Shown here: in pieces, positions 882 through 33,136 of the stretch | How the letters are laid out: each line of letters begins with the position of its first letter | Position numbering within the stretch: the first letter of the stretch is position 1 | Assembly: GCA_041737295.1 (NCBI GenBank) | Contig: JBGSSA010000163.1 | Location: forward strand, 6,898-70,897 | Direction: 5' to 3' | DNA length: 64,000 nucleotides | Source of the DNA: Bacteroidales bacterium | Lineage (GTDB): Bacteria > Bacteroidota > Bacteroidia > Bacteroidales > UBA10428 | The notes under the pieces: model-generated | The model's database searches: none | What the model was told of the DNA's origin: nothing | What the model saw: the letters and a program-made list of their open reading frames with translations, nothing else | Program-made: the position numbers and the translations under genes

Positions 882-1001
882 GGCCTGAGTATATTTTCAT
901 CCAAATTAAAATATTTTTATATAAAAATGAAACCATGCAGCAACTATTTTGGTAAACTGTGAAACATCTTGGAGAGCAGCGCACCAACCCAGGTTTTTTT
1001 T

Positions 1002-1841
1002 ATGATGGTTACAGATCAGGATTATCAGCTCTTTGTTTATGCCTTGAAGAATTCTTCGAAGTATGACTTTAGCCAGTATTCGGAGAAATCCCTGAAGCGG
1101 AGGATCCTGAAAATACTGACTGATCATCGGCTTACGTTGCCCGCTCTGATCTCAAGAATGAAATGTGATCCTGATTTTGTAGAGAAAATCGTGAAGGAGA
1201 TCACCGTGAATACGAGCGAACTCTTTCGTGACCCGCAGGTTTGGCAGACCCTGCGGTTTATAATCCTTCCCCGGTTCAAAAACAACAGTATCATCAATAT
1301 ATGGCATGCAGGATGTTCCACGGGCCAGGAAGTTTATTCCATGCTTATCCTGCTTAATGAATTAAACCTCCTTGAAAAATCTAAAATCTACGCTACCGAC
1401 ATCAACAGTGATGTGATGGATACGGCTAAACTGGGCGAATACCGTTACCGGTTTAACCTTTCCTATCTCGATAATTTCGATAAGGTGATCAAGGAAAATC
1501 CATATAACTATGATGAATATAACGATGTTCCGTATGATAAATATTTCACACTCGACAAGGCTACGGATACAATCCGTATGAAGCCTTTCCTGAGGGAAAA
1601 GCCCGTTTTCAAAAAACATGACCTTGTGACGGAAAACAATACATTGTATGTAAAATTCGACCTCATCCTTTGCCGGAATGTGATTATATATTTTAATTAC
1701 AACCTGCAATGCCAGGTCTTTGATCTTTTTCACCAGAATCTGTATGACAGCGGATGCCTGATGTTGGGCCTGCATGAGACGATCCTGGGGGCCCATGCTG
1801 CCAAGTTTCAAAAAAAAGGGCATGCATACCTTAAAAATTGA
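1002..1841 (+). CDS. cheR: CheR-family protein-glutamate O-methyltransferase with canonical motifs
   Basis: ITVNTSELFRDP, IWHAGCSTGQEVYS, ATDIN, DLILCRNVIIYF; ATG 1002 preferred over the ORF-track start 969. Confidence 0.9.
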   Translation: MMVTDQDYQLFVYALKNSSKYDFSQYSEKSLKRRILKILTDHRLTLPALISRMKCDPDFVEKIVKEITVNTSELFRDPQVWQTLRFIILPRFKNNSIINIWHAGCSTGQEVYSMLILLNELNLLEKSKIYATDINSDVMDTAKLGEYRYRFNLSYLDNFDKVIKENPYNYDEYNDVPYDKYFTLDKATDTIRMKPFLREKPVFKKHDLVTENNTLYVKFDLILCRNVIIYFNYNLQCQVFDLFHQNLYDSGCLMLGLHETILGAHAAKFQKKGHAYLKN

Positions 1842-1904
1842 TCCTCTTAGGATATATTTGAATTATTTGAAAACCAAAAGATTATTACCAATAACCAGTA
1901 AAAA

Positions 1905-4079
1905 ATGAAAATTAAAACAACCATATCTGCCATTTCAAAAAATATGTTTTTTGGCATTGGGTTTGTCCTTTTTGCAGGCCTGGTGCTCCTGATCAACTGG
2001 TTTTTTAATTCGCCGGTCAAACAGGCTGATATGATTAACCGCCGACTGGTCAGAACAGAACAACAGATCAATATGCTGAGGTCCGCTCAAAATGAGCTAA
2101 TTCTCCGGTATGACATGGCGGAGGACCTTTTTGCCGATACCCAAAGCCTGTCGGAGGAACAGGTAACATCCGCATTAAATACCGTGAAGAGTGATATTGA
2201 ATACTTCCAGGGCTTCCGTGTAGTGAAAAATCATCCGGCAATAGCCACTTCTCTCAGCAACCAGGGTATTGCACTGAATGAATACGAAGGGAACCTGAAA
2301 GTTCTTATGATGGCGACCGTAGAAAGGGGCAGTGAGCATTCAGGGCTTATAAGCCGCTGGCTTGAAGTAAGCTCAGGAATGCTGAATGCAGCCTCCGACA
2401 ACGGACCTGACATGGTAAGGATGGTTGAAAAATTAAAGCAGACCGAAACAGCATACCTGTTGAATAGCAACATGAAAGGTATAAATGATATCCTTGCATT
2501 GGCCGATGAAATCAGAACCAGGCTTTCGGGAAAAGAAACAGGGATTAAGGTCAGTGACCTGGATTCATACACTGCATTAACAAACAACCTTGTTTCCGTT
2601 GACACGCGGATCGGAACATCCGGAAACCCGGGAATTATTTCGAATACCGGTAAAAGCCTTGAGGCGCTCCTAAATGCCTCCTCGAACACAACCCTTCTCA
2701 TGAATGAGGCTCTGCAAAAAAGGAAAACCGTATGGACTATTGCCCTGTATGTAATAATAGTCCTGATAACCATTTGCGGGATCATTTTCCTCATAGTGAT
2801 CACGAACAGGGTAATCACAACCCCCCTGTCAACTACCGCCGCTTATCTTGGTGACATTGCAGCCGGTAAATTGCCTGCGCAACCCCTGTCCGAAGAGGGG
2901 CTTCCCGAAATTAAGCAGGTTGACCATGCCGTGAATGAACTGTTAATTGAATTAAAAAAGAAAACTGATTTTACCCGTTCCCTGAATGAGAATAATCTCG
3001 GTATACAGCTAATCGCTTCCGGTCCCCACGATGAACTGGCCGGGGAACTGAACTCACTGCAGAAAAAAATGACGGATACTGCCGATGTTCAGAGAATGAA
3101 CGATGTGGAAAATGCCAAAAGACGGTACATTAATGAAGGCCTGGCAAAATTTGCCGAGATTTTGCGGACGCAAAGCAATGATATCCATTTGCTGGGAGAT
3201 GCTTTTATCCGTGAGATCGTAAAATACCTGGGAGCTATCCAGGGCGGGTTTTTCCTGCTTAATGAGGACAAGGGCGATGAAAAAATGCTGGAACTGGTAT
3301 CCTCATTTGCCTACAACCGCAAGAAATACATGCAAAAATCGCTTTACCCGGGTGAAGGACTTGTAGGAACATGTGCCATGGAAAAGCAGATCATCAACCT
3401 TACTGAAATTCCGGAGGGATATATCACAATCACCTCGGGACTTGGCGATACAAAGCCCGACAACCTGCTGCTGGTTCCGGTATTGCACGAATCGGAACTC
3501 ATCGGTGTGCTTGAAATTGCCTCCCTGGCCCTGTTCAAGGAGCACGAAATTCAGTTTGCAGGAGAGGTTGCCGGCAGCCTGGGCGCAACGATCATTTATG
3601 CCCGCAATAACCAGCGAACATCCGAGCTGCTGATGAAATCACAGCAACAGGCGCTTGAAATGTCGGAACAGGAAGAGGAAATGAGGCAGAACATGGAAGA
3701 GCTGAAAGCTACACAGGAAGAGTCATCGCGCCGTGAAGAAGAATTCCGTGGCATTGCCGAAGCCATCAGCCAGTCGCTTTTTATGATTGAGTACGGCCTG
3801 GATGGCATAATCCGTGACGTGAATGATAAATTCTGCATTTTCATGGGCCTTACACGTGAGGATATCCTGGGAAGAGATCATCATACCGTCCTGGCAGGTA
3901 CGCTGATTCCGGATACGTTGTTCTGGGAAGAACTGCAACGAAACAATCATGTAACGCTGACTGAAAAAATAAAAATAGGCAGGAAACAGCATCATCTGAA
4001 GGAACATTTTGCCGTGGTTCAGAACAAGGATGGCATTGTCGTCAGGTACATCAATTTCATTACCGAAGTTACAACATAA
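1905..4079 (+). CDS. Membrane sensor: TM-periplasmic domain-TM-HAMP-GAF-methyl-accepting-like coiled coil-PAS, no output domain
   Basis: Two hydrophobic segments; GAF motif GEGLVGTCA...ITSGLG..PDNLLLVP; heptads EQEEEMR QNMEELK ATQEESS; C-terminal PAS-like DGIIRDVNDKFC. Confidence 0.8.
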   Translation: MKIKTTISAISKNMFFGIGFVLFAGLVLLINWFFNSPVKQADMINRRLVRTEQQINMLRSAQNELILRYDMAEDLFADTQSLSEEQVTSALNTVKSDIEYFQGFRVVKNHPAIATSLSNQGIALNEYEGNLKVLMMATVERGSEHSGLISRWLEVSSGMLNAASDNGPDMVRMVEKLKQTETAYLLNSNMKGINDILALADEIRTRLSGKETGIKVSDLDSYTALTNNLVSVDTRIGTSGNPGIISNTGKSLEALLNASSNTTLLMNEALQKRKTVWTIALYVIIVLITICGIIFLIVITNRVITTPLSTTAAYLGDIAAGKLPAQPLSEEGLPEIKQVDHAVNELLIELKKKTDFTRSLNENNLGIQLIASGPHDELAGELNSLQKKMTDTADVQRMNDVENAKRRYINEGLAKFAEILRTQSNDIHLLGDAFIREIVKYLGAIQGGFFLLNEDKGDEKMLELVSSFAYNRKKYMQKSLYPGEGLVGTCAMEKQIINLTEIPEGYITITSGLGDTKPDNLLLVPVLHESELIGVLEIASLALFKEHEIQFAGEVAGSLGATIIYARNNQRTSELLMKSQQQALEMSEQEEEMRQNMEELKATQEESSRREEEFRGIAEAISQSLFMIEYGLDGIIRDVNDKFCIFMGLTREDILGRDHHTVLAGTLIPDTLFWEELQRNNHVTLTEKIKIGRKQHHLKEHFAVVQNKDGIVVRYINFITEVTT

Positions 4080-4109
4080 TCAGGGGTACAACCAATACAC
4101 CACCAAACC

Positions 4110-4940
4110 ATGCCTGAACTGGGAATTGTTGACATACGGGAAATTATAAGGGTTGTGAAATCAGAATACGATTATGATTTTGCAAATTATGCCCTTACCT
4201 CTTTCAAGCAGCGGCTTGAGCGGCTCATGTCTTTGTATAATATCAGCAGTATAGAATCGCTGACCGGAAAATTAAAAGACGAAAGCGCTTTCATTGACAC
4301 CTTCCTGCACGAAATTACTGTACCCTCCACGGAAATGTTCCGGGATCCTTCGTTGTGGAGATGGTTGCGCGAAGAATATTTTCCGAAGGTTATGGATAAA
4401 TTTCCCGGCAAATTCAAGATCTGGCTGCCCTCATGCGTTTCAGGCGGTGAGCTGTTTTCACTGGCCATCCTGCTTTCGGAATCGGGATTTCTCGATAAGG
4501 TACAGATCATTGCCAGTTGCCTCAGCCTGAAAAGCATCGAGGAAATTAAAAGCGGAAGTTATGACCAGAAAAAAATGGAAATTTCCGAAGAAAATTACAA
4601 GCGTTTCAATGGTTCACGGCAGCTTTCAGATTACTATAAGAGTGACCGTACCGGGATAACAAGGGATACATCGTTAATAAGCCAGGTTGAATTTAAAAAA
4701 CTAAATATTAACTTTGATACTGCACCCCAAAACGTCAGGCTTATATTATTCAGAAACAGCATGATATACTATTACCCCACGCAACAGGAAAAGGTTTTGC
4801 GGATACTCTATAATTCCTTATCAGCTTCAGGACACCTTGTAATCGGCATACGTGAAAAATTAACCGGAATGAGCCCCGGACGCGATTTTGAATTGGCAAA
4901 TGAACTTGAATGTGTTTATCGTAAACGAATATTCAGTTAA
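4110..4940 (+). CDS. cheR: Second CheR-family protein with degenerate SAM-binding motifs
   Basis: YDYDFANYALTSFKQR and TEMFRDP retained; IWLPSCVSGGE, IASCLS and RLILFRNSMIYY replace the canonical motifs. Confidence 0.8.
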   Translation: MPELGIVDIREIIRVVKSEYDYDFANYALTSFKQRLERLMSLYNISSIESLTGKLKDESAFIDTFLHEITVPSTEMFRDPSLWRWLREEYFPKVMDKFPGKFKIWLPSCVSGGELFSLAILLSESGFLDKVQIIASCLSLKSIEEIKSGSYDQKKMEISEENYKRFNGSRQLSDYYKSDRTGITRDTSLISQVEFKKLNINFDTAPQNVRLILFRNSMIYYYPTQQEKVLRILYNSLSASGHLVIGIREKLTGMSPGRDFELANELECVYRKRIFS

Positions 4941-4943
4941 GCG

Positions 4944-5504
4944 ATGAATTACAAGGCAGTAATAATAGGCGGATCCGCCGGCAGTTTCCAGGTAGTAACC
5001 CGGATACTGAACGGTTTGCCAAAATCATTTCCGTTGCCTGTGCTGCTTTGCCTTCACCGGCTGAAGCATGTACGTTCGGGATTCGTTGAAGCCCTTTCCC
5101 TTAAATCGAACATACCCGTTGAAGAGCCCTATGATAAGGATCTGCTTCGCCCGGGAAAGGCCTATCTTGCCCCGGCCAATTATCATATGTACATAGAACT
5201 AGCTAACCGTATTGCGCTTTCAACAGAGGAAACCGTAAATCATTCCAGGCCGTCAATTGATCTTTCATTTATCACGGCGGCCAATGCCTACCGCGAAAAG
5301 CTCATCGGGATCATTCTCTCGGGGGCCAATAAGGACGGTGCCGCGGGGCTTAAAAAGGTTCACGACAACGGGGGCATTGCCATTGTTCAGGATCCGGCTG
5401 AATGTGAGGTGAAAACAATGACCCAATCAGCCCTGCAACTTACCCGGGTGGATTTCGTATATACCACAGATCAAATCATTAATTACCTTGTAAAGCTTAA
5501 GTAA
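4944..5504 (+). CDS. cheB: Stand-alone CheB methylesterase (no receiver domain)
   Basis: IGGSAGS (Ser), LHR (His), SRPSID, ILSGANKDGA (Asp); 186 aa. Confidence 0.9.
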   Translation: MNYKAVIIGGSAGSFQVVTRILNGLPKSFPLPVLLCLHRLKHVRSGFVEALSLKSNIPVEEPYDKDLLRPGKAYLAPANYHMYIELANRIALSTEETVNHSRPSIDLSFITAANAYREKLIGIILSGANKDGAAGLKKVHDNGGIAIVQDPAECEVKTMTQSALQLTRVDFVYTTDQIINYLVKLK

Positions 5505-5508
5505 AACG

Positions 5509-6294
5509 ATGCAAAGCCTCAGTAAATACAGACAATTCAGCATAGCAGCGATGATCATTATGGTCATCTCTTTTGCACTGTCATTTGCCTCGTTATGGAA
5601 CACGGTTTTGACAGGTAAAATCAAGTATACGGGATGGAATATTGCTTTTATTCTAATTCTTTTTATTTCCGGAATGCTCCTTTTTTACTTCGCATACCGG
5701 TTTACGGATGAAAAAGCCGCCGAAGAGGAACAAAAAAAAGCATATGAATCAGGAAAAGCCGAAATTCTGAATGAACTTGAAAAAAGAAACCAGGTTGAAA
5801 AACAAACCCGGCAAACCGATGACGAAGACATTGAAAAAGCAGTATCCCAAATAATGACGGGGATCAAATCGGGCCGTACCCTGAAAACGGGAAACAAGAT
5901 CCTGGCCACCCTGGCCAAACATCTTGATTTTGTGCAGGGCATCCTTTATATAAAAGAACCATCAGGCGAATTATTTATCCCGGAAGGAGAATATGCTTTG
6001 ACCGGACAAAAACCCGCTGCCTTTCAAAAGGGAGAAGGATTGGCCGGACAGGTGGCGGATAGCATGACTCCCATGGTACTTTACGACATTCCGGAACAGT
6101 ATTTTTCTGTAGAATCGGCACTGGGAAGTTCCAAACCATGTTTCCTGCTGCTTACCCCGCTGATTTTTGAAGGCGAATGCTTTGCCGTGATCGAACTGGC
6201 TGCCTTCAAAAAGCCGGATGATCTCACGGGTAAAATTATGCAGAAATTATCTGCTGAACTGGGACCTATATTACATACTTCTTTTGCTGCCTGA
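5509..6294 (+). CDS. 2-TM membrane protein with a C-terminal GAF domain only
   Basis: Two N-terminal TM segments, charged helix, GEGLAGQVA...VESALGSSKPCFLLLTP. Confidence 0.75.
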   Translation: MQSLSKYRQFSIAAMIIMVISFALSFASLWNTVLTGKIKYTGWNIAFILILFISGMLLFYFAYRFTDEKAAEEEQKKAYESGKAEILNELEKRNQVEKQTRQTDDEDIEKAVSQIMTGIKSGRTLKTGNKILATLAKHLDFVQGILYIKEPSGELFIPEGEYALTGQKPAAFQKGEGLAGQVADSMTPMVLYDIPEQYFSVESALGSSKPCFLLLTPLIFEGECFAVIELAAFKKPDDLTGKIMQKLSAELGPILHTSFAA

Positions 6295-6300
6295 TGACCC

Positions 6301-8922
6301 ATGAATGAAGAAAAAAGAAATACAATCCTTCAGGATATTATAAACAGTGAAACATTTGTCACTGCGCTTGTTGCCGGTATACTGTTCCCGCTTATCGCAT
6401 GGAGTATTCAATTCGTACACGGCAACGTTGCCGTTTCCGTATCGGGAATCGGTACCATACACAGGAATAATCCCGTATTGTGGATCCTTGATATCGTTCC
6501 TTTCATATTCATTGCAGGATCTTATTTCCTTGATCAGCGGCAGAAAAGAATACACGGTCAACTATCAACCCAGCTGCATGAACGGGATGCCCGCATGAAT
6601 ACGATGGCAGATTTCGCCCAGAATATCGGGGAAGGGAATTACACATCAAAGCTGGCACTCGATACGAACAATGACACGCTGGCCCAGTCGTTGCTTGTTA
6701 TGCGCGACAACCTGCTGCAGAATACGAGAAAAGAATCTGAACTCAGCTGGATAGCCGGGGGCAAGGAAACCATATCCGACATCCTGCAACAATATAATAA
6801 GATCGATGAACTCTCCAACCGGGTCATTCATTCCCTGGTTAATTACACCCGGCTTGTTCAGGGCGCCCTGTATATTTATGATGAAGATACAAAAACTCTC
6901 AAAAGCGCCGCCACTTATGCCTATAACCGAAGGAAATTCATCACACAGGAATATAAACTGGGATATGGATTGATCGGGGAATGTGCCTACGAGATGGACT
7001 ACATTTACCGCACCGAAATTCCGGATGAATATGTAAGCATCAGCTCCGGCCTCCTGGGAGACCGGAAACCGCGCAGCCTGCTGCTAATACCGCTTATTTC
7101 GGATGAAAAGCTCCAGGGTGTGCTTGAATTTGCTTCCCTCGAAGCCCAGATCCCCCAACTAACCATTACCTTATTAAAAGAACTCGGCGAAATTATTGCC
7201 AGGACCTTTTTCAACTTGAAAATCAATCAGCGCACCGAAAAGTTACTGATCGAATCACAGCAGATGACGCTTGAATTGCAGGAAAATGAGGAGGAACTGC
7301 GGCAAAATGCAGAGGAAATGCGGGCTACCCAGGAAGAACTCAAAAAGTCGAATGATCACCTTGAATCGAAAATCCTTGAGGTGGAAAATGCCCAGAAAAG
7401 ACAATATTCGCTGCTCGAAAATGCATCAGAGATCATTGCCATTTATGACGAAAACATGGTAATGACCTATGAAAGCCCGTCTGTCATTAATATCCTGGGC
7501 TTTACACCCGAAGAAATGATGGCGGGTCAGGATATGAACCGGCTGACCCGAAAAGGGGAAACCAGTATGCGGAATATGTTCAAACAGCTGCTGGCCAATC
7601 CGGCCGAACCGGTTGTGATACAGTATACCTACATGAAAAAGAACGGGCAGAAGATATTCCTGGAGGCAACAGGACGTAATCTGCTAAGTGATAGCGCAAT
7701 CAGCGGTATCATTATCAACTCAACCGATATTACCGAACGGAAACGTGCTGAAAGGGAAGAGCGTTTAAAAAGCAAGATGCAGGCCTTATCGGAAAATTCA
7801 CTCGATCTGATCATACGACTCAGCACGGTAGGGCAGTTCTTTTACGCCAACCCCGTGGTCAGCAATTTCATGGATATAGATCCACGCGACATTCTGAATA
7901 AAACCCTCAACGAAGTGCCGATGTCGGAGATGCTGAAGGCATATTTCAGGGAAACTCTCGACACAATCAAAGCATCCCCCGAAAAGCGGGCTGCAGAAAT
8001 TACAATTTCCACTGTGACTGACGGGGTTCAAACAGACCGGATCATGAGTTTTGCAGCCATCCCCGAATTTAATGAGAATGAACTGGAGACCGTGTTATTT
8101 GTGGGACATGATATTACCGAAGCCAAACAGATTGAGCATGAGATCCAGGATAAGAACAGGAAAATTGAGGATTCGATCAATTATGCTCAGCGCATTCAGA
8201 GTTCTATACTACCGGATATTCGTTCCATAAGGGAATACCTGCCCAAATCATTCGTGTATTATAAACCCCGTGATGTGGTCAGCGGTGACTTCCCATGGTT
8301 CTTCAACAAGGGCAATGATATTTATATCGCTGTGGTGGACTGCACGGGCCATGGCGTGCCGGGTGCCCTGCTGTCGTTTGTAGGCTATTTCCTGCTGAAT
8401 AATATTGTTGACCGTGACAAGAAGTTCTCTGCCGCCGAAGTTTGCGACCTTCTTCATTTCGGCGTGAGAAAAACCCTGAAACAGGATAGTGAGGACGCCG
8501 AGGCCAGGGATGGCATGGATATCGCATTTTGCAAAGTGAACCACGTTGACCGTGAATTACAGTATGCAGGAGCACACCGCCCGCTTTACCTGTTGCGAAA
8601 CGGTGAATTGCTTGAATATAAAGGTGACCGGAAGGCAATCGGGGGAATACCCCACCGCAAAAAAGAGGAGGAGAATTTCACCAATTATGTGATCAAGTAC
8701 AAACGTGGCGACAAGTTTTTCTTCTTTTCTGACGGACTCCCCGACCAGCTGGGCGGTTCAGAAGGAAAAAAATACTCACCCAAACGTATTCGCGAACTGA
8801 TCCTTGAAAATAAAAGTCTGCCCATTGAACAGTATTGTACTCTATTTGAGGAGGACTTTGATGTCTGGAAAGGTGAAAGCAAGCAAATTGACGACGTTTT
8901 GCTGATCGGAATTGAATTTTAG
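6301..8922 (+). CDS. SiaA-like membrane PP2C/SpoIIE phosphatase: TM-HAMP-like-GAF-EE coiled coil-PAS-PAS-SpoIIE
   Basis: GYGLIGECA GAF; ENEEELR QNAEEMR ATQEELK; two PAS/PAC units ending DITE; RDVVSGDF, DCTGHGVPGA, DGMD, FSDGLPDQ, IDDV PP2C motifs. Confidence 0.88.
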   Translation: MNEEKRNTILQDIINSETFVTALVAGILFPLIAWSIQFVHGNVAVSVSGIGTIHRNNPVLWILDIVPFIFIAGSYFLDQRQKRIHGQLSTQLHERDARMNTMADFAQNIGEGNYTSKLALDTNNDTLAQSLLVMRDNLLQNTRKESELSWIAGGKETISDILQQYNKIDELSNRVIHSLVNYTRLVQGALYIYDEDTKTLKSAATYAYNRRKFITQEYKLGYGLIGECAYEMDYIYRTEIPDEYVSISSGLLGDRKPRSLLLIPLISDEKLQGVLEFASLEAQIPQLTITLLKELGEIIARTFFNLKINQRTEKLLIESQQMTLELQENEEELRQNAEEMRATQEELKKSNDHLESKILEVENAQKRQYSLLENASEIIAIYDENMVMTYESPSVINILGFTPEEMMAGQDMNRLTRKGETSMRNMFKQLLANPAEPVVIQYTYMKKNGQKIFLEATGRNLLSDSAISGIIINSTDITERKRAEREERLKSKMQALSENSLDLIIRLSTVGQFFYANPVVSNFMDIDPRDILNKTLNEVPMSEMLKAYFRETLDTIKASPEKRAAEITISTVTDGVQTDRIMSFAAIPEFNENELETVLFVGHDITEAKQIEHEIQDKNRKIEDSINYAQRIQSSILPDIRSIREYLPKSFVYYKPRDVVSGDFPWFFNKGNDIYIAVVDCTGHGVPGALLSFVGYFLLNNIVDRDKKFSAAEVCDLLHFGVRKTLKQDSEDAEARDGMDIAFCKVNHVDRELQYAGAHRPLYLLRNGELLEYKGDRKAIGGIPHRKKEEENFTNYVIKYKRGDKFFFFSDGLPDQLGGSEGKKYSPKRIRELILENKSLPIEQYCTLFEEDFDVWKGESKQIDDVLLIGIEF

Positions 8923-8948
8923 TAATATTGTAATAAATCTGTTAACCT

Positions 8949-9530
8949 ATGGATAATAAAAAAGATGTGAAAGGTTTTCTGGAATTTGTATACGAATTCT
9001 ACAAATCCATGAAAGCTCATGAAATTACCCTCGTGTATGAAGGCGAAATTACACATCAGATTACGAAAGCTTTTACTTCGCTTACCGAATCGAACATGTC
9101 AAAAGAAGATGAACCGAATTCAGTTCAGCGAAAAGTATTTCATGTGATGGTCGAATGCCTTCAGAACATCAGCAAGCATGCTGATGACTTTACATCCAAT
9201 GATTACCTTTTTTCAGGCCGCGGAATCTTTCTTGTCAGCAAAGGTGAAAACGAATATAGCGTTACAACCGGAAATGCTGTTGAAAATGAGAAGATTGAAT
9301 ACCTCACGGAACTGCTTGAAAACATCAACCGGATGGACAAGGAAGAATTAAAGGAACTGTATAAAAAGCAGATGAAAGAGGGCCGGCTTTCCGAAAAGGG
9401 AGGCGCCGGACTTGGCTTTATCGATATCAAACGAAAAACCAACAAGGAACTGGAATATCATTTCCTGCCCATTTCAGATGATACCTCCTTTTTTCTGCTG
9501 ACATCCACTATTTCAAGATCTGACAATTAA
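8949..9530 (+). CDS. SiaB-family protein kinase (GHKL-like)
   Basis: LVYEGEI, VMVECLQNISKH, LKELYKKQM, GGAGLGFIDI; sits between a PP2C gene and siaC. Confidence 0.85.
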   Translation: MDNKKDVKGFLEFVYEFYKSMKAHEITLVYEGEITHQITKAFTSLTESNMSKEDEPNSVQRKVFHVMVECLQNISKHADDFTSNDYLFSGRGIFLVSKGENEYSVTTGNAVENEKIEYLTELLENINRMDKEELKELYKKQMKEGRLSEKGGAGLGFIDIKRKTNKELEYHFLPISDDTSFFLLTSTISRSDN

Positions 9531-9543
9531 AATCATTCAATAT

Positions 9544-9918
9544 ATGGAAACAATCAAAATACAAGGTTCCGAAGACACTCCAAAAATAATTCTGGATGCC
9601 GGAAATGAAATCCTTGAAATCAGCGGCCGTTCATTGCCTGAGGATGTGTCATCTTTCTATGAACCGGTTCTCAACTGGCTGAATGAATATGCTGAGAATC
9701 CCAACAAAAAGACCGTATTCAACTTCAAGCTCACCTATTTTAATACAGCTTCTTCCAAATTACTGCTCGATATTCTGATGAAGCTGGAGGAAATGCATGA
9801 GAAGGGACAGGAAGTACTGATCCGCTGGCATTATCCCGACGATGATGAGGATATGGCAGAGGCCGGCGAAGAATACGCCGATATTGTTGATGTACCCTTC
9901 GAACAGGTATCCTATTGA
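9544..9918 (+). CDS. SiaC-family (DUF1987) regulatory phosphoprotein
   Basis: DTPKI, ISGRSLPED..FYEP, YFNTASSK with Thr at residue 68, WHYPDDDEDMAEAGEE. Confidence 0.88.
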   Translation: METIKIQGSEDTPKIILDAGNEILEISGRSLPEDVSSFYEPVLNWLNEYAENPNKKTVFNFKLTYFNTASSKLLLDILMKLEEMHEKGQEVLIRWHYPDDDEDMAEAGEEYADIVDVPFEQVSY

Positions 9919-9970
9919 ATATACCCTTAATTTATGGCCGTTTGCCGGTGTCAGTTAAACTGGTTATTGA

Positions 9971-12900
9971 ATGAGTGAAGAAATTCTCAGAGCGTTAATG
10001 CAACTGTTTGCTATAATAGCAAAACAGGATGAAGGGGTAGAAACTACCCAGGTTGAATATGTAAAGAATTTTTTGCAGCAACAGCTCAACGATGAAGAAG
10101 TAAAGGAATACTTTCAGCTTTTCAGGCAGTATAGCGGCATGGAAGATGACGGCAACGGTTCCGACCCGGATGAAGATAAGGGCGTACGGAAACTTACTTC
10201 TGTCAGGGATTCTGTCCGGATCCTCGGCCTTTGTAAAAAAATCAACAAAACCCTGACCCAGAAACAAAAAGTAGTTGTTCTGGTCAGACTTTTTGAAATT
10301 GTGAGTGCCGACCGGAAGTTTACCGATCAGCGAATGCAGATCATCAATACGGTTAGTGATGTTTTTAAGGTTGAGAAGGAGGAATTCACAAGCATAGAAT
10401 CCTTTGTGATCAGGAATGAATCCCATGAACTGGATGATAATAACATCCTGATCATAAATGACAAACCGGACGTACCGCGGGAGGCAAAAAAAATACCGAC
10501 TAAACAGCTGAATGGAGATATTTTTGTACTTAAGATCAAAAGTGCGGATCTCTACTTTTTAAAATATACCGGAAATGAAGACCTCTTTTTAAATGGCCTT
10601 CCCATCCGGAATGACCGTATTTATCTGTTCGCCAACGGAAGTACAGTAAAACTGCCCAAGGCGGCGCCCATTTATTTCAGCGATGTGGCAGCCCATTTCC
10701 TGGCAGATACCGTGTCACACCCGATATCCTACATAGCCAGGGATCTGGAATTCAAATTCCCCAACGGGAATACCGGATTGCATCATATCAGCTTTTCCGA
10801 AACCCATGGACGGCTCATTGGGATCATGGGTGCCAGCGGAGCCGGAAAAACTACACTCCTTAATGTGCTCTGTGGCATTGACACACCATCGAATGGCGAA
10901 GTGCTGATCAACGGCATCGATCTGCACAAAAACAATGAAAAACTGGAAGGCGTAATCGGCCTTGTGCCCCAGGATGACCTGTTGATTGAAGAACTTACCG
11001 TATATCAGAACCTGTATTATAATGCAAGGCTTTGTTTTGAGGATAAAAGCGAAACTGAAATCGACGAGCTGGTCAATAAAATACTCGTTAACCTGGGGCT
11101 TTTCGACCGGAAAGAACTGAAAGTAGGGTCCCCCCTGAAGAAAATGATCAGCGGCGGACAGCGTAAAAGGCTGAACATCGCCCTGGAACTGATCCGTGAA
11201 CCTGCAATCCTTTTTGTGGATGAACCAACCTCAGGACTTTCATCCAGGGATTCGGAAAACGTCATGGACCTACTCCGTGAACTGGCCCTCAAAGGCAAAC
11301 TTATTTTCGTTGTCATCCATCAGCCCTCTTCGGAGATTTATAAGATGTTTGACAAGATGATCATCCTCGATACCGGTGGATATATGATCTATTACGGAAA
11401 CCCGGTAGAAGCAGTGATGTATTTCAAACGGCTTGATGCACAGGTAAACAGTGAAATAGGAGAATGCAACGCCTGCGGAAATGTAAACCCCGAACTGATC
11501 TTTAACATTATCGAAGCCAAGGTGGTGGATGAGTTTGGAAATTATACCGATGCCCGTAAGGTAACACCGCAGCAATGGGATGAGCATTTTAAGCAATTGG
11601 TAGATTACAGTGAATCCCCGCAGAATGAAGGCAACCCGCCAAAGAACCTGAGAATACCCGGATGGTTCAAACAATTTGGCATTTATACCGTCCGTGATTT
11701 CTTTTCAAAGATCAGCAATAAACAGTATATCGCACTGAGCCTGCTTGAGGCGCCGGTACTGGGTTTTATCCTGTCGTCAATAATCCGGTATATTGAAGAT
11801 CCGGTTGCCGGCCATTATGTATTCAGGATAAATGAGAATATCCCCATTTTTATCTTCATGTCCCTGATCGTAGCCCTGTTTCTCGGGCTTACAATCAGCG
11901 CGGAGGAGATCTTCCGCGACCGGAAAATATTAAAGCGGGAACAGTTCCTTAACCTCAGCCGTTCAAGCTACCTGATTTCGAAAATTATGATCCTTTTTTC
12001 GATCTCTGCCATCCAGTCGTTCCTGTTTGTCATTGTTGCCAACCAGTTTTTAGGCATCCAGGGAATGCACTTTGTCTACTGGTTTGCCCTGTTTTCAACG
12101 GCTTCTTTTGCCAACATGCTGGGCCTGAATATATCAGCCTCCTTTAATTCGGCGGTGACGATTTACATCCTGATTCCGCTTGTTATGATTCCCATGATGA
12201 TCCTTAGCGGGGCCATGTTCAGCTACGATAAGCTGAATAAAAATATAAGCCGGGTGGATAAGGTACCGGTACTGGCTGAAATGATGGTCACCAAATGGTC
12301 GTATGAGGCCCTGATGGTGCATCAGTTTAAGGACAATATGTTCATGAAACAGAAACTGTACCTGATTGAAAAAGAAGAAAGCCAGAGTGATTATAAGAAA
12401 GTATACTGGCTCCCCGAACTGGCTGAACGCCTTGATCGTGTGCGTGCCGAAGTTCAAAGCACAGGAACAGTGAGCATGTCTTCCAATGACCTGTTGCTGA
12501 TCTCCAATGAAATCAGCAAGGAGTTGCTGACAAATACAGAACTACCGCCATTTGAGGGCATTGATGAACTTCAACCGCTGAAATTTACTTCTTCAACAGC
12601 AGACCTGGTAAGTAGCTATCTCTCGGTCCTCGACAAATACTATGGAGAGAAATTTCAGAAAATCAGCAAGCAGAAAGAAAACTATTTCAATTTTTACCTC
12701 GATCGTGATCCGGATGCCTATAACCGGTTACGAGACCAATATCATAATGAAGGGGTTTCCGATATTGTGCGCAAGGTGTATGAAAAGAATAAGATCCTTG
12801 AATATGATCACCAGCTGGTTCAGCATTATGATCCGATCTATTATGATCCATTTGTGGGAGACATATTAACGCTCAGAACGCATTTCTTTTCTCCTGTAAA

Positions 12901-13045
12901 ACCATTTCTGGGCAAACTGTTTGATACATACTGGTATAACATGATCGTGATCTGGCTGCTCACATTATTTTTGTACCTCGCGCTATATTTTGAATGGTTA
13001 AAGAAACTTATTAACTTGTCTCAACGTTTCAACAAGAACAAGTGA
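9971..13045 (+). CDS. ABCG/White-like single-chain ABC exporter (NBD then TMD) with about 250 aa N-terminal extension and a large extracytoplasmic loop
   Basis: Walker A GASGAGKTT, signature ISGGQRKR, Walker B FVDEPTSGL, H-loop IHQP; ABC2-type TM helices; TerB-like helical N-terminus. Confidence 0.88.
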   Translation: MSEEILRALMQLFAIIAKQDEGVETTQVEYVKNFLQQQLNDEEVKEYFQLFRQYSGMEDDGNGSDPDEDKGVRKLTSVRDSVRILGLCKKINKTLTQKQKVVVLVRLFEIVSADRKFTDQRMQIINTVSDVFKVEKEEFTSIESFVIRNESHELDDNNILIINDKPDVPREAKKIPTKQLNGDIFVLKIKSADLYFLKYTGNEDLFLNGLPIRNDRIYLFANGSTVKLPKAAPIYFSDVAAHFLADTVSHPISYIARDLEFKFPNGNTGLHHISFSETHGRLIGIMGASGAGKTTLLNVLCGIDTPSNGEVLINGIDLHKNNEKLEGVIGLVPQDDLLIEELTVYQNLYYNARLCFEDKSETEIDELVNKILVNLGLFDRKELKVGSPLKKMISGGQRKRLNIALELIREPAILFVDEPTSGLSSRDSENVMDLLRELALKGKLIFVVIHQPSSEIYKMFDKMIILDTGGYMIYYGNPVEAVMYFKRLDAQVNSEIGECNACGNVNPELIFNIIEAKVVDEFGNYTDARKVTPQQWDEHFKQLVDYSESPQNEGNPPKNLRIPGWFKQFGIYTVRDFFSKISNKQYIALSLLEAPVLGFILSSIIRYIEDPVAGHYVFRINENIPIFIFMSLIVALFLGLTISAEEIFRDRKILKREQFLNLSRSSYLISKIMILFSISAIQSFLFVIVANQFLGIQGMHFVYWFALFSTASFANMLGLNISASFNSAVTIYILIPLVMIPMMILSGAMFSYDKLNKNISRVDKVPVLAEMMVTKWSYEALMVHQFKDNMFMKQKLYLIEKEESQSDYKKVYWLPELAERLDRVRAEVQSTGTVSMSSNDLLLISNEISKELLTNTELPPFEGIDELQPLKFTSSTADLVSSYLSVLDKYYGEKFQKISKQKENYFNFYLDRDPDAYNRLRDQYHNEGVSDIVRKVYEKNKILEYDHQLVQHYDPIYYDPFVGDILTLRTHFFSPVKPFLGKLFDTYWYNMIVIWLLTLFLYLALYFEWLKKLINLSQRFNKNK

Positions 13046-28064: not shown

Positions 28065-29846
28065 ATGAAAACGTTAGGCGGTATTTTTTTACTTCCCTGC
28101 ATTACATTCACCTTCTATTGTGCAGGGCAAAATTCAGGATCCCGGGATAATAAAATCGTACCCTCCCTCGAGGCAGCGAAAACATATTCGCTCATTATCA
28201 CCGAAATTATGGCGGACCCCCATCCTGCGGTGGCATTGCCTGATGCGGAATATCTTGAAATTTATAACCGGGGGCCCCAGCCGGTGTCCCTTTCCGGTTA
28301 CAGGCTCCTGTTTGGCGATAATGAAAAGGTATTGAACTCCGGCAGGGTGGCAGCACCGGGAGAATATATCATTGTTTGCGACGAGAAGGACGAGGTTGCT
28401 TTTAAACCGAGGGGTACCACATTGCCGGTACCCCATATGCCCGCCATTGTCAATACAGGGGCAACGCTTGTTCTTGAATCACCTTCCGGGAACATGATAC
28501 ATTCCGTTTCCTTCACTGACAAATGGTACAGGTCTGCCGGGAAAGCGGGTGGCGGATGGTCTCTTGAAATGATCGATCCTGAAAATCCGTGCGGGCACGC
28601 CGAAAACTGGCGTGAATCGACGGATCCTGCGGGTGGCTCACCGGGACAACCCAATTCCGTGAATGCGAAAAATCCGGATCATGAAAAACCGGAATTGCTG
28701 AGGGCTTCGTTGAATCCGGACAGTTCGGTAGTCCTTTATTTCAGCGAGGACATGGACAGTATTTCCCTAATGGATCCGTTACATTACTATGCCACGTTGG
28801 GGCTGCTCCATCCGTTCAGGACCAACCCCGTGGAACCTGCATTTTCAACTGTACACCTCAACTTTAATGGCAATCTGAACTGTGCCTTTACGTACACTGT
28901 AACGGTCCTGAGCAAGCTGAACGATTGTGCTGGAAATCCATTGCAGGGCAACGCCCAGGCTGATTTTGCCATTCCCGTTAAGGCCGATAGCTTTGATATT
29001 GTCATTAACGAACTGCTCTTTGACACCCCGGCCGGTATGTCCGAATTTATTGAACTTTTCAACAGGTCGGAAAAAGTAATAGACCTGGCCGGATTTTCAA
29101 TAGGTTCCTGCAATGTCAATACCGATAGCCTGGTTAGACTTGCATCATCCGGGGAAAACTCCTTTTTACTCTTTCCGCATCAATATGTGGTTTTTACCAG
29201 GCGCTCTGACCGGTTGCCTGATCCGGAAAACCGGCTTGATTTATCCAATGTGATTGAGTTGCCGTCCCTGTTTACCTTTCCGGATAAGGAAGGCAAAATC
29301 GCCATTTATAATGCTGAAAATCAACCAATGGACGTCTTTTACTATTCTCCATCCATGCATTCGATTTTTATAAAGGATAACGAAGGCATTTCCCTTGAGA
29401 GGATACATGCCGATTTGCCGACAAATGATGTCACCAACTGGTATTCCGCGGCATATGACAAGGGATATTGCACCCCGGGCTTCAAAAATTCCCAGGAAAT
29501 TTCAACCTCAACGGAGAAAGAAAGCATAACGGTATCCCCGTCTGTATTTTCTCCGGATGCAGATGGTGCAGATGACCAGGTATTTCTGACCATATTACCG
29601 GGCGCCCCTGGTTTCACAGGTACAATCCTGATTTACGATTTACAGGGCAAAAAGATGAAGAATTTATGCTCCAATGAGCTGTTAGGGACAGAAACCATCG
29701 TGTCATGGGACGGGAAATGCAATGATAACAGCGATGCTCCGCCCGGTATCTACCTGATCTGCATCGAAATATTCAACCAACAGGGAGCCGTAAAAAAATA
29801 CCGGAAAGTTGTTACGCTGGCACGTGGGCTTTTTATGATTAATTGA
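28065..29846 (+). CDS. Secreted lamin-tail-domain protein with T9SS-type C-terminal domain
   Basis: IITEIMADP..EYLEIYNR and VINELLFD..EFIELFNR (two LTDs); FSPDADGADD...WDG...PGIY tail. Confidence 0.8.
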   Translation: MKTLGGIFLLPCITFTFYCAGQNSGSRDNKIVPSLEAAKTYSLIITEIMADPHPAVALPDAEYLEIYNRGPQPVSLSGYRLLFGDNEKVLNSGRVAAPGEYIIVCDEKDEVAFKPRGTTLPVPHMPAIVNTGATLVLESPSGNMIHSVSFTDKWYRSAGKAGGGWSLEMIDPENPCGHAENWRESTDPAGGSPGQPNSVNAKNPDHEKPELLRASLNPDSSVVLYFSEDMDSISLMDPLHYYATLGLLHPFRTNPVEPAFSTVHLNFNGNLNCAFTYTVTVLSKLNDCAGNPLQGNAQADFAIPVKADSFDIVINELLFDTPAGMSEFIELFNRSEKVIDLAGFSIGSCNVNTDSLVRLASSGENSFLLFPHQYVVFTRRSDRLPDPENRLDLSNVIELPSLFTFPDKEGKIAIYNAENQPMDVFYYSPSMHSIFIKDNEGISLERIHADLPTNDVTNWYSAAYDKGYCTPGFKNSQEISTSTEKESITVSPSVFSPDADGADDQVFLTILPGAPGFTGTILIYDLQGKKMKNLCSNELLGTETIVSWDGKCNDNSDAPPGIYLICIEIFNQQGAVKKYRKVVTLARGLFMIN

Positions 29847-29879: not shown

Positions 29880-30407
29880 ATGATCATTAAAAAAGAATAC
29901 CAGGAAAAATCCCTATTGCTATACCAGGGTACACTTACTGTTAATCTTATCTCCATACTAAGCAATCATATCCGCTTGCTGCTCAATCATGATTTCAAGG
30001 CCCTGCAGAAAATTTTCAAGATTTTTATTGAATTGTCCCAGAATGTCTCCTATTATTCAGCTGATTCATTTGAAGTAAATACCGGCGTATTTTGCGGGAT
30101 AGGCTGGGTTTCCGTCCAGGATCTCGATGAATGCTACCGTATTACCACCGGCAATATCATCAGGCCAGCGGACGCAGATACATTGACCAAGTATTGCCAG
30201 GAGATCAATTCAATGTCTGAGGAACAACTGAGAAAATTAAAAAGGGAAATCCGTTCAGAAGCGCTGGCAAGAGAGACAGGCGCTCATATCGGGCTCATCC
30301 AGACGAGCATTATCAGCGGAAATAATCTTGAATTCCATTTTGACCGGGAGGATGAGACCAAACCGGCTTTCATTTTATCCGCCATAATCAACAAAGAACC
30401 TGTATAA
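29880..30407 (+). CDS. Second, orphan SiaB-family protein
   Basis: LLYQGTLT, FIELSQNVSYYS, ITTGN, QLRKLKREI, GAHIGLI align by eye with the 8949 protein. Confidence 0.75.
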   Translation: MIIKKEYQEKSLLLYQGTLTVNLISILSNHIRLLLNHDFKALQKIFKIFIELSQNVSYYSADSFEVNTGVFCGIGWVSVQDLDECYRITTGNIIRPADADTLTKYCQEINSMSEEQLRKLKREIRSEALARETGAHIGLIQTSIISGNNLEFHFDREDETKPAFILSAIINKEPV

Positions 30408-30435: not shown

Positions 30436-31176
30436 TCAGGTAATTTTTGCAGTAAGGAATTCGCGGTTCAACCGGGCGATATGGGACAGGGATATCTGTT
30501 TCGGACATTCAGCCTCGCAAGCCCCTGTATTCGTGCAATTTCCAAAGCCTAATTCATCCATTTTAGCTACCATTTTAAGTACCCTTTCTTTGGCCTCAAC
30601 CCTACCCTGCGGAAGGACGGCAAACTGGGATACCTTGGCGGCCACAAAAAGCATTGCGGATGCATTTTTGCAGGCGGCAACACATGCACCGCAACCAATG
30701 CAGGCTGCAGCATCCATTGAAGTTTCGGCACTATGCCTGGGAACAGGAATGCTGTTTGCGTCGGGAACACCCCCCGTATTCACAGAAACATATCCTCCTG
30801 CCTGAATGATCCTGTCAAAAGCAGAACGGTCAACCACAAGGTCCTTGATAATGGGAAAAGGCTTTGCCCGCCAGGGTTCCACAATAATTGTATCTCCATC
30901 TTTAAATTTCCGCATATGCAGCTGGCAGGTGGTAACCGCTGTGTCGGGCCCGTGGGGGCGGCCATTAATATACAATCCACAGGCACCACATATACCTTCC
31001 CGGCAGTCATGATCGAAACAAACCGGTTTATCAAGTTTATTGACCAACTGGTTATTAAGGATATCCAGCATTTCAAGAAAAGAACAGTCAGCTGAAATTC
31101 CGGTTACCTGGTATTTTTCAAACCTGCCTTTTGTCCTGGCATTTTCCTGCCTCCAAATCTTCAACGTAAAATTCAT
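30436..31176 (-). CDS. sdhB: Succinate dehydrogenase/fumarate reductase iron-sulfur subunit
   Basis: [32 protein letters not shown]. Confidence 0.95.
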
Positions 31177-31180
31177 AACC

Positions 31181-33136
31181 CTATATTTTATAATTGCGGG
31201 ACTGTACTTTTATGCTTTCATAGACCAGCGGTTCCTTATGAAGAACCGGTTCCCGGGTACCGTCTGTATACTGCCAGGCAGCCACGAACATATAATCATC
31301 ATCATTTCTTTTGGCTTCTCCTTCTTCTGTCTGATATTCTTCCCTGAAATGGCCGCCGCAGGATTCTTCCCGCTGCAGGGCATCCCTTGCCATGAGTTCA
31401 CCCATTTCAATAAAATCAGCCACGCGCCCAGCTTTTTCGAGCTCAGGATTCATCTCGTCCGCACCACCCGGTATCCGTGCATCAGACCAGAATTCAGCCT
31501 TCAGGCGGCCGAAGTCGAGGATTGCTTTTTCAAGGCCGCTCTTATTCCTGGCCATGCCAACCGTATCCCAGAGGAGCAGGCCAAATTTCCGGTGCAACAC
31601 ATCCACAGGCTGTGTACCTTTGATTTGCATAAGTTTGCTGATCCGCTCATGAACGTTATTTTCAGCTTCCTCAAATTCAGGGAGGGTAACCGGCACCCGG
31701 GGGGTCATGATTTCGGCGGCGAGGTAATTCTGGATTGTATACGGCAGTATAAAATATCCGTCCGCCAGACCCTGCATCAATGCCGAAGCACCCAGACGGT
31801 TTGCCCCATGATCCGAAAAATTGCATTCCCCGATAGAAAACAATCCCGGAATATTGGTCATGAGTTCGTAATCAACCCATGTACCGCCCATACAATAATG
31901 AATGGCCGGATAGATCATCATGGGTGTTTTATACGGATCATCATCCACTATTTTTTCATACATCTGGAAAAGGTTGCCATACCGTTCTTCGATCACATGT
32001 TTTCCAAGCCGCCCGATTGATTCCGCGAAATCGAGGTACACGGCCAACCCGCTGCCCACACCAAATCCGGCATCACATCTTTCTTTTGCCGCACGTGAAG
32101 CAACATCCCTGGGAACCAGGTTCCCAAATGCGGGATAACGCCGTTCAAGGTAATAGTCACGATCCTGTTCCGGGATGTCAGCCGGTTTTTTGGTCCCTTT
32201 CCGGAGTACTTCCACATCCTCTTTTTTTGCCGGTACCCATATACGGCCATCATTACGGAGGCTTTCACTCATCAGCGTAAGCTTCGATTGGTAATCACCG
32301 TGAACGGGGATACAGGTCGGATGGATCTGCACAAAGGATGGATTGGCAATGAGTGCGCCTTTTTTATAGGCCTGCCAGATTGCGCTTCCGTTTGAACCCA
32401 TGGCATTCGTTGAAAGAAAAAAGGCCCTGCCATAACCACCGGTTGCAATGACTACCGCGTGACTGAAATGTCTTTCAATTTTTCCGGTCACAAGGTTCCG
32501 TACGATGATTCCTCTGGCCTTGCCCTCAATAATCACAACATCCAGCATCTCCGTTCGGGGAAAGATCTTCACAGTCCCTAATTCCGCCTGGCGCATAAGG
32601 GCGCTGTAAGCACCCAGCAATAACTGCTGCCCGGTCTGTCCACGGGCATAAAATGTACGCGACACCTGGGCACCGCCAAATGACCGGTTATCAAGCAGTC
32701 CACCGTATTCCCTTGCAAAGGGAACGCCCTGTGCAACACACTGGTCGATAATACTGCCGCTTACTTCGGCAAGACGGTACACATTGGCTTCCCTGGCCCG
32801 GTAATCCCCCCCTTTTATCGTATCGTAAAAAAGTCTGTATACACTATCTCCGTCATTCGGATAATTCTTGGCGGCGTTTATTCCCCCCTGTGCAGCAATA
32901 CTGTGTGCCCTGCGCGGGCTGTCCTGGTAACAGAAGGCCTTTACGTTAAACCCAAGTTCCCCAAGACTGGCGGCTGCCGAAGCCCCGGCAAGTCCGGTTC
33001 CTACGACAATAATATCCAGTTTTCGCTTGTTAGCCGGGTTTACCAGCTTTTGCGTGGCCTTATAGTTCGTCCATTTCTGAGCCAGGGGGCCTTCCGGAAT
33101 ACGGGGATTCAGCTTTGTCATATCAGTGTAATTCAT
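31181..33136 (-). CDS. sdhA: Succinate dehydrogenase/fumarate reductase flavoprotein subunit
   Basis: [34 protein letters not shown]. Confidence 0.96.

Follow-up and report, generated by a model that had tools for sequence, protein, structure and literature searches.

CheR/CheB methylation is textbook sensory adaptation and is almost always discussed for arrays of methyl-accepting chemotaxis proteins (MCPs) and CheA. What, then, do these enzymes modify when they are encoded beside a Ser/Thr phosphatase? The question is raised by a 64,000-nucleotide stretch of DNA from a Bacteroidales bacterium (GTDB lineage Bacteroidota; Bacteroidia; Bacteroidales; UBA10428; NCBI GenBank assembly GCA_041737295.1, contig JBGSSA010000163.1, positions 6,898 to 70,897 of the forward strand), referred to here as the window. 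In the window, genes for two CheR-type methyltransferases and a CheB methylesterase precede the gene of a membrane-anchored PP2C phosphatase (hereafter the PP2C), in which the segment between a GAF and a PAS domain carries Glu-Glu pairs every seven residues. An earlier reading made from the sequence alone (the sequence-only reading) proposed that this segment and a near-identical one in a sensor protein encoded upstream are the CheR/CheB substrates and would give the phosphatase a chemotaxis-style adaptation or memory. We report that the CheR/CheB pair belongs to a PP2C cassette and is tied to the Glu-pair module across the phylum, a conclusion that is well supported. Moreover, gene association and sequence pattern suggest that the Glu-pair coil accepts methyl groups in a pathway from receptor to PP2C to SiaC, and we put the probability of this at roughly 0.6.

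The window corresponds to contig C52 of the source genome (G000), a 5.4-Mb assembly of 258 contigs rated 95.5% complete. The two proteins with the Glu pairs and the parts of them that matter here are as follows (aa, amino acids; ORF, open reading frame):

1905..4079, + strand: sensor, an output-less receptor of 724 aa in which Pfam detects only GAF_2 (aa 428-563) and PAS (aa 612-723)
3639..3749 (about; arithmetic from the ORF start), + strand: Glu-pair coil of the sensor, SQQQALEMSEQEEEMRQNMEELKATQEESSRREEEFR
6301..8922, + strand: PP2C, a membrane-anchored GAF-coil-PAS-PAS-SpoIIE/PP2C phosphatase of 873 aa (Pfam) with a putative SiaA-like role
7255..7350, + strand: reported Glu-pair stretch of the PP2C, translating to SQQMTLELQENEEELRQNAEEMRATQEELKKS
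7156..7419, + strand: continuous helix predicted by AlphaFold2 from the GAF end into PAS (aa 286-373)

Translation together with Pfam bears out what had been seen in the PP2C. The heptads ENEEELR, QNAEEMR and ATQEELK sit between GAF_2 (aa 168-301) and PAS_9 (aa 378-479), ahead of a second PAS domain (aa 498-609) and SpoIIE (aa 672-872), and the Glu pairs E331-E332, E338-E339 and E345-E346 are spaced by exactly 7 residues. The near-identical stretch noticed in the sensor is there as well (the ORF reads ...SEQEEEMRQNMEELKATQEESSRREEEFRG) and is scored at E 1.4e-12 by a coil-only profile; the sensor starts with a membrane/sensor region, followed by GAF, the Glu-pair coil and PAS, and has no enzymatic domain. 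In the whole genome, three EE pairs at heptad spacing occur in only 7 of 14,706 stop-to-stop ORFs (six-frame, at least 80 aa), and 6 of the 7 encode the GAF-coil module or a CheB-CheR fusion protein, the seventh (on contig C192) being unrelated. This rarity indicates that the motif shared by PP2C and sensor is more than chance. The back-translated DNA pattern EE[LIMF][RS]QNxEE[LIMF] gave 6 matches in the source genome and 0 with a reversed control, and the same pattern matched 2 of 250 other genomes of the phylum (G243 and G111).

Sensor and PP2C are encoded in a cluster (969-13045) in which all genes run in one direction (+), and the other members of which are:

969..1841, + strand: CheR1, a standalone CheR-type methyltransferase (Pfam CheR 4.8e-36, CheR_N 1.4e-6)
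4110..4940, + strand: CheR2, the CheR type present in every cassette (Pfam CheR 1.5e-28, CheR_N 6.6e-7)
4944..5504, + strand: CheB, methylesterase domain only, 186 aa (Pfam CheB_methylest 8.7e-50 over aa 6-181)
5509..6294, + strand: small membrane GAF protein ('g') without the coil (Pfam GAF_2 1.2e-7)
8949..9530, + strand: SiaB-like protein kinase, DUF6272 (Pfam DUF6272 1.3e-43; PDB 6kko chain A 8.2e-13)
9544..9918, + strand: SiaC-family regulatory phosphoprotein (Pfam SiaC 6.3e-43; 6kko chain C 1.8e-17)
9971..13045, + strand: TerB-ABC fusion, ATPase plus ABC-2 membrane part (Pfam TerB, ABC_tran, ABC2_membrane)

The cheR and cheB genes on which the sequence-only reading depended (969-1841, 4110-4940 and 4944-5504) are neighbours, as that reading implied, and the enzymes of the CheR2-CheB pair appear intact. 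CheR2 aligns with Bacillus subtilis CheR 5ftw (1.4e-18), and CheB with Thermotoga maritima CheB 3sft (1.9e-25), in which Ser (GGSAGS), His (LHRL) and Asp (NKDG) match the template residues that we take to be the catalytic triad. CheR1 gave 115 bits against the CheR part of the genome's CheB-CheR fusion and 80.5 bits against the CheR of its MCP cluster; the ORF as listed begins with TTG, and translation may in fact start at an in-frame Met-Met located 11 codons downstream. For the right half of the cluster, the DUF6272 and SiaC matches to 6kko, presumably a SiaB-SiaC complex with SiaB as chain A, point to a SiaA/SiaB/SiaC-type partner switch. The stretch ...YFNTASS... of the SiaC homologue was aligned to ...YLNTSS... 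of 6kko chain C, and the Thr in this N-T-S/A-S stretch is presumably the phospho-site.

The cassette recurs across Bacteroidota in the order CheR, (sensor), CheR, receiver-less CheB, small GAF, GAF-coil-PAS-PP2C, SiaB-like kinase, SiaC and TerB-ABC. The PP2C has 1572 relatives at E<=1e-5; over aa 150-420, identity is 72-100% for the 120 listed, and source records label the close ones 'Bacteroidales bacterium'. Species-representative genomes were searched with a module alignment (A1), which gave 618 confirmed stretches, and the best 80 loci were used. PP2C orthologues account for 36 of these 80 (50-80% identity over the module; order CheR-(sensor)-CheR-CheB-GAF-PP2C-SiaB-SiaC-TerB/ABC), and in 32 of the 36, all in genomes of other species, CheR and CheB lie immediately upstream of the PP2C. 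As to the remaining four, one has CheB only (cut upstream), one contig (L044) is cut at the PP2C, and two loci (L029 and L030) have neither gene in 9.6 kb of upstream DNA. The two genomes concerned (G251 and G252, one record naming Draconibacterium orientale) have a split cassette, with PP2C-SiaB-SiaC-TerB/ABC at L029/L030 and CheR-CheR-CheB-GAF on another contig (L099/L100). Of the other 44 loci, which are more distant (36-45% identity; Cytophagales and others), 4 have sensor-CheR-CheB-GAF-PP2C-SiaB-SiaC, and the flanks of the remaining 40 are without CheR or CheB. According to the cassette maps the small GAF protein is always encoded directly 5' of the PP2C, and TerB-ABC, the conserved final gene in other genomes as well, is a candidate output of the cassette. 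CheR2 orthologues were aligned from 51 loci (A3). The cassette CheBs elsewhere are open frames of 185-217 aa; one of them (L031, from a metagenome bin) appears split into two frames, possibly by a frameshift or an assembly error.

Co-occurrence was assessed at the genome level in 44 genomes, i.e. the 42 genomes to which 43 loci lacking a neighbouring CheR/CheB belong, together with G243 and G111, the two that carry the module in the 250-genome phylum sample. Genomes found through the motif were used because an even sample of the phylum is inefficient for this purpose (strict motif in 2 of 250). CheR was found in 42 of the 42 genomes and in G243 and G111, CheB in 44 of 44, and in each of the 44 a CheB of 185-217 aa adjoins a standalone CheR (coordinates compared between tables); as background, 119 of the 250 genomes sampled from the phylum have CheR, many of these being long fused forms. 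The sequence-only reading had named, as one finding that would be at odds with it, equal conservation of the motif in homologues from genomes that lack cheR/cheB, and no such homologue was found among the genomes examined. Furthermore, 17 of the 44 module genomes have no MCPsignal match (E<=1e-5), and CheW was found in 0 of 5 carrier genomes tested. Fifteen loci were fetched around such CheR genes; the 12 that come from MCP-less genomes all show CheR-CheB-GAF-PP2C-SiaB-SiaC-TerB/ABC, and in 10 of these 12 genomes the cassette CheR and CheB are the only copies found. Since the cassette is present in genomes without MCP and CheW, a non-MCP substrate is required there.

The same data bear on the view that the adjacency is incidental and that the cassette CheR/CheB serve chemotaxis proteins encoded elsewhere in the source genome, which does have candidates for such a role. 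One MCP, with CheA/CheW/CheR/CheB, belongs to a classical cluster on contig C93, in which a 687-aa frame matches CheW in addition to CheW itself and CheB is a frame of 363 aa, and a MAC1-like CheB-CheR-coil-PAS_10-PAS fusion is encoded on contig C10 (L006 862-3819, +; stop-to-stop frame of 986 aa). The MCP cluster, however, has its own CheR and CheB and the fusion protein its own domains, and the same cassette is found in genomes without MCP, in genomes without CheW and in genomes with a single CheR/CheB, so that we regard incidental adjacency as very nearly negligible. Service to the genome's own MCP cluster was rejected, being contradicted by the MCP-less genomes. The coil of the C10 fusion protein has at least 8 consecutive EE-L/M/I heptads (NEELNSMREEMQTSQEEISSANEELQSTNEELQSANEELTTSMEEMQSMNEEL). 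A lone 201-aa CheB encoded on contig C2 (L007; C2:30974-31576, -), on which no CheR was found, has its closest similarity to this fusion protein's CheB domain (36.6% identity).

The Glu-pair motif lies at the heart of a conserved module in which GAF leads into a helix whose Glu-Glu pairs recur at intervals of seven residues. There are seven copies in the source genome: PP2C, sensor, one each on contigs C117, C122, C167 and C196, which have sensor domains, GAF and PAS only and no output domain, and a divergent one on C24. The latter (C24:3760-7173, -) is a GAF-coil protein in a 1138-aa frame that ends SEEQLRMNLEEIMATQEES, with EQ instead of EE as its core pair. In an AlphaFold2 model of PP2C aa 149-478, computed for the monomer only (46 sequences; mean predicted local distance difference test, pLDDT, 84.5), the segment forms one 88-residue helix (fragment residues 138-225). 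The consensus of 46 distinct orthologue coils has Leu/Met/Val every 7 residues across nine heptads, which we assign to heptad position d (L333, M340 and L347 in the PP2C). With this register the Glu pairs would fall at positions b and c and would hence be solvent-exposed on a putative parallel dimer; in the three Glu-pair heptads, polar or small residues (E, A, Q, N) occupy the second core position.

In PP2C coils there are 2-3 pairs, and Q is absent from the pair positions. In 51 receptor coils (A4), b and c hold Glx pairs in up to five successive heptads, and in the heptad preceding the core, 26 of the 51 have E at c and 21 have Q. At MCP methylation sites, E/Q alternation at the second Glx is known, and the genome's own MCP reads SSTEEISSSMEEMVS and ASSEEMATSAEELSS, in the same xxxEE-hydrophobic register as ENEEELRQNAEEMRATQEEL. 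The other cassette proteins, scanned by eye, have no heptad Glx pairs; judged by sequence pattern, no MCP-like methylation feature other than the coil is present. We take the coil to be the putative methyl-accepting element because CheR and CheB need a non-MCP substrate, and because the coil alone resembles methylation sites, covaries with the enzymes and is common to PP2C and receptors.

Proteins with the module mostly carry no output of their own. None of 34 module proteins from other genomes has an enzymatic domain (34/34; Pfam, E<=1e-5), and their inputs are 4HB_MCP, dCache, CHASE3, PilJ or HAMP, followed by GAF, coil and 0-4 PAS domains. Among 1.84 billion cluster representatives, a 75-position profile (A4) matched 5529 at E<=1e-3, the top library matches having 2-9 coil copies per protein. 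Pfam was run on 47 of the best 150 library matches (every third, with the long P0122, P0128 and P0182 dropped; some may be fragments): 44 are without an enzymatic domain, 3 have SpoIIE, and HisKA, HATPase, GGDEF, EAL and MCPsignal were found in 0 of 47. MCPsignal (Pfam, E<=0.01 for PP2C and sensor) and HisKA/HATPase are likewise absent from the PP2C, the sensor and the 34 module proteins. No enzyme other than PP2C was found joined to the coil in one protein, and most coil carriers are output-less receptors. Among individual library proteins, P0122 (1989 aa), P0128 (2405 aa) and P0131 (2122 aa) each have 8-9 matches to a GAF-end-plus-coil profile per chain, with seven PAS_4 stretches in P0131; P0125 has four coils, before PAS domains and again near the C-terminus, and the PP2C protein P0185 has three.

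In multi-copy proteins the coil typically precedes each PAS domain, and this repetition could mark it as a conserved structural linker or PAS cap. The coil would then be a purely structural signalling helix (an S-helix-like linker or PAS N-cap) with E, R, Q and N in intra- or inter-helical salt bridges, and CheR/CheB would modify another protein (small GAF, SiaC, SiaB or TerB) or other residues. The EExR/K spacing, read from sequence, would suit i to i+3/4 salt bridges, and CheR/CheB are kept in two cassettes with a coil-less PP2C and in two with degenerate pairs (see below). In addition, the coil-only profile matches neither the MCP nor the CheB-CheR fusion protein of the genome at E<=10, so what the coil has in common with proven or proposed methylation helices is a pattern and not detectable homology. 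Unlike those of ordinary linkers, however, the exposed b and c positions are conserved across orders, and a structural role by itself accounts neither for the CheR/CheB pair in 44 of 44 module genomes nor for the restriction of heptad Glx pairs (by eye) to the coil. The coil-less PP2Cs, moreover, adjoin a coil-bearing sensor, and SiaB/SiaC systems of CheR-less genomes go with PP2Cs that lack two EE pairs 7 residues apart. We consider a purely structural coil unlikely.

How far the phosphatase's own helix is involved can be judged from its variation at 49 loci with PP2C and SiaB-like genes. Both core pairs (NAEE-M/L and Q/H-EE-L) are kept in 42 of the 49 PP2Cs, and one pair is altered in 3 (QDEL, HDEL, QEIL). 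Two PP2Cs (L094 and L095) have AEIM and QVEL instead of the EE pairs, and two have lost the coil (L076 and L082), CheR and CheB still being present in all four cassettes. In L076 (9635-12106, 824 aa) and L082 (9653-12142, 830 aa) the whole coil is deleted and a short GAF-to-PAS linker is left; both adjoin a cassette sensor with a full coil and 5 EE-hydrophobic triplets. The two coil-less and two single-Glu PP2Cs imply that the phosphatase's own helix is not always the target. In the phylum sample, 10 genomes with DUF6272 are CheR-less and hold paralogous SiaB/SiaC systems; none of the PP2Cs at 5 SiaB/SiaC loci of CheR-less genomes has two EE pairs at a distance of 7 residues. The one shown in detail (L137) is a Reg_prop/Y_Y_Y-PP2C without GAF or coil.

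This variation would also fit methylation of output-less receptors only, such as the sensor at 1905-4079, with the PP2C coil just pairing with receptors by means of the GAF-coil-PAS module common to both. The number of Glx pairs is 4-5 in receptor coils, which also show E/Q alternation, compared with the 2-3 pairs free of Q in PP2C coils, and receptors keep the pairs where some PP2Cs have lost coil or pairs. The retention of both core EE pairs in most PP2Cs over large evolutionary distances argues against it, as do the many cassettes without a nearby receptor gene, though receptors are encoded elsewhere in those genomes, and we judge a receptors-only role to be distinctly improbable. The proposal that the two helices of PP2C and sensor are the CheR/CheB substrates can accordingly be kept in part: the tie of CheR/CheB to cassette and module, in MCP-less genomes also, speaks for it, and what has to be given up is the restriction to two helices and to the phosphatase, as there are seven carriers in this genome and thousands elsewhere, mostly output-less receptors.

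Starting from the observed motif, domain architecture, gene order, co-occurrence and predicted helix, we propose a chemotaxis-like sensory system without MCP, CheA and CheW, in which the Glu-pair helix would accept the methyl groups. Receptors of the type (sensor domain)-HAMP-GAF-coil-(PAS)n, with no output of their own, would be coupled to the PP2C, which bears the same GAF-coil-PAS module. The cassette CheR enzymes would methylate exposed Glu/Gln residues at b and c of the GAF-to-PAS helix, and the receiver-less CheB would demethylate or deamidate the same residues. Charge neutralisation may then alter the packing of a marginal coiled-coil dimer (polar at one core position) and bias the phosphatase output as in chemoreceptors, which could provide the system with adaptation kinetics. 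PP2C and the SiaB-like kinase would together set the phosphorylation state of the SiaC-like protein, which probably acts on the TerB-ABC transporter encoded beside it.

Several points weigh against a methyl-accepting coil in addition to its repetition before PAS domains, the failure of the coil-only profile to find the MCP and fusion-protein coils, and the four cassettes with degenerate or missing pairs. The proposal is partly supported, and the strong support that it has comes from comparative genomics. The module genomes are kin and mostly metagenome bins, and CheR is common in the phylum, so that the co-occurrence statistic is inflated and the counts overstate independence. The invariance of the core columns in the PP2C (A2) and receptor (A4) coils is partly circular because the search patterns imposed these columns, and some non-pair positions of the receptor coil likewise mix E and Q. 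Finally, Pfam detects no receiver domain on the window CheB, in which the methylesterase domain fills aa 6-181 of 186; the classical phospho-feedback is therefore missing and there is no obvious feedback route for 'adaptation'. A complex prediction for two PP2C coils with CheR2 and S-adenosylmethionine scored 0.23 and 0.01 against a mark of 0.32, was run with no controls and speaks neither for nor against binding.

A wider reading, which we advance tentatively and at somewhat less than even odds, is that the cassette encodes a complete chemotaxis-like pathway operating on Ser/Thr instead of His-Asp phosphorylation. Output-less receptors would couple to one PP2C in the role of CheA, SiaB/SiaC would take the role of CheY, CheR/CheB methylation would provide adaptation and the ABC transporter the output, and the pathway would be widespread in Bacteroidota, including species without MCP/CheW (CheA was not searched). 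The genome encodes two further DUF6272 proteins. One SiaB-like gene at 29880-30407 of the window (+; Pfam 5.3e-28) lies between the gene of a Lamin-tail/Big_5 protein (28065-29846) and opposite-strand fumarate reductase/succinate dehydrogenase genes (30436-33136), with no PP2C and no SiaC among the neighbouring ORFs scanned, and a third copy is on contig C46.

The locus ties CheR/CheB to a PP2C/SiaB/SiaC switch and to a large family of output-less, receptor-like proteins, also in bacteria without chemoreceptors. If the Glu pairs are methylated, methylation-based tuning can plug into Ser/Thr phosphatase signalling, thousands of 'PAS domain S-box' or GAF proteins now without a function would have one, and cultured Cytophagales (Marivirga, Fulvivirga, Xanthocytophaga) would offer a tractable test case for MAC proteins. 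A literature search (supplements not covered) gave no paper on CheR/CheB with SiaABC or PP2C in Bacteroidota and none combining DUF1987 with CheR.

A methylated helix outside MCPs is not unprecedented, given the MAC proteins and RsbK/RsbM. MAC proteins are said to go back to Wuichet and Zhulin in 2010. They are described as methyl-acceptors of the coiled-coil type to which CheB/CheR are fused (MAC1) or with which they are associated (MAC2) (bioRxiv 10.1101/2022.05.07.491037; PMC6943060), and, in the preprint's own description, as having the functions of a receptor as well as of a kinase and as experimentally uncharacterised as of 2022 (bioRxiv 10.1101/2022.05.07.491037). Compared on the basis of these descriptions, the likeness lies in a non-MCP coiled coil with methylation-like Glu pairs and in CheB and CheR that are fused, as on contig C10, or encoded alongside. 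The difference is that no kinase domain is present here, PP2C being the sole enzymatic output on the coil and most carriers being output-less; the coil-only profile also misses the genome's MAC1-like coil.

In Bacillus cereus, the S-helix that follows the GAF domain of RsbK, the protein in control of the PP2C RsbY, is methylated by RsbM (PMC4574943, PMC12848376). As far as these accounts go, both systems have a GAF-helix with a CheR-type methyltransferase alongside and PP2C partner switching, and some receptors here have the order CHASE3-HAMP-GAF-helix. RsbK, however, is a hybrid histidine kinase with a C-terminal receiver and RsbY a separate response regulator, whereas the window proteins have neither kinase nor receiver. 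RsbM, moreover, is described as an orphan without a paired esterase, while in the cassette CheB is always present and the helix is found in the PP2C itself as well as in output-less receptors.

With MCPs the module shares heptad Glx pairs on long helices, E/Q at the second residue, chemoreceptor-type ligand-binding domains and HAMP upstream, and several receptors per genome for one CheR/CheB pair. It differs in that there is no MCPsignal hairpin, in that the helix joins GAF to PAS (monomer model) instead of forming an antiparallel four-helix bundle, and in that the CheB has no receiver domain; several carrier genomes, in addition, lack MCP (17 of 44) or CheW (found in 0 of 5 tested; CheA was not searched).

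The closest counterpart of the right half of the cluster is SiaABCD of Pseudomonas aeruginosa, in which PP2C, a SiaB-like kinase and SiaC (DUF1987) are also encoded in a row. A SiaD diguanylate cyclase, the target of SiaC in that system, is not encoded next to SiaC here (no genome-wide GGDEF search was made), and its place is taken by TerB-ABC, in the other genomes as well. The phosphatase of the cassette, finally, differs from its SiaABCD counterpart in having GAF-coil-PAS inputs and in being preceded by CheR and CheB.

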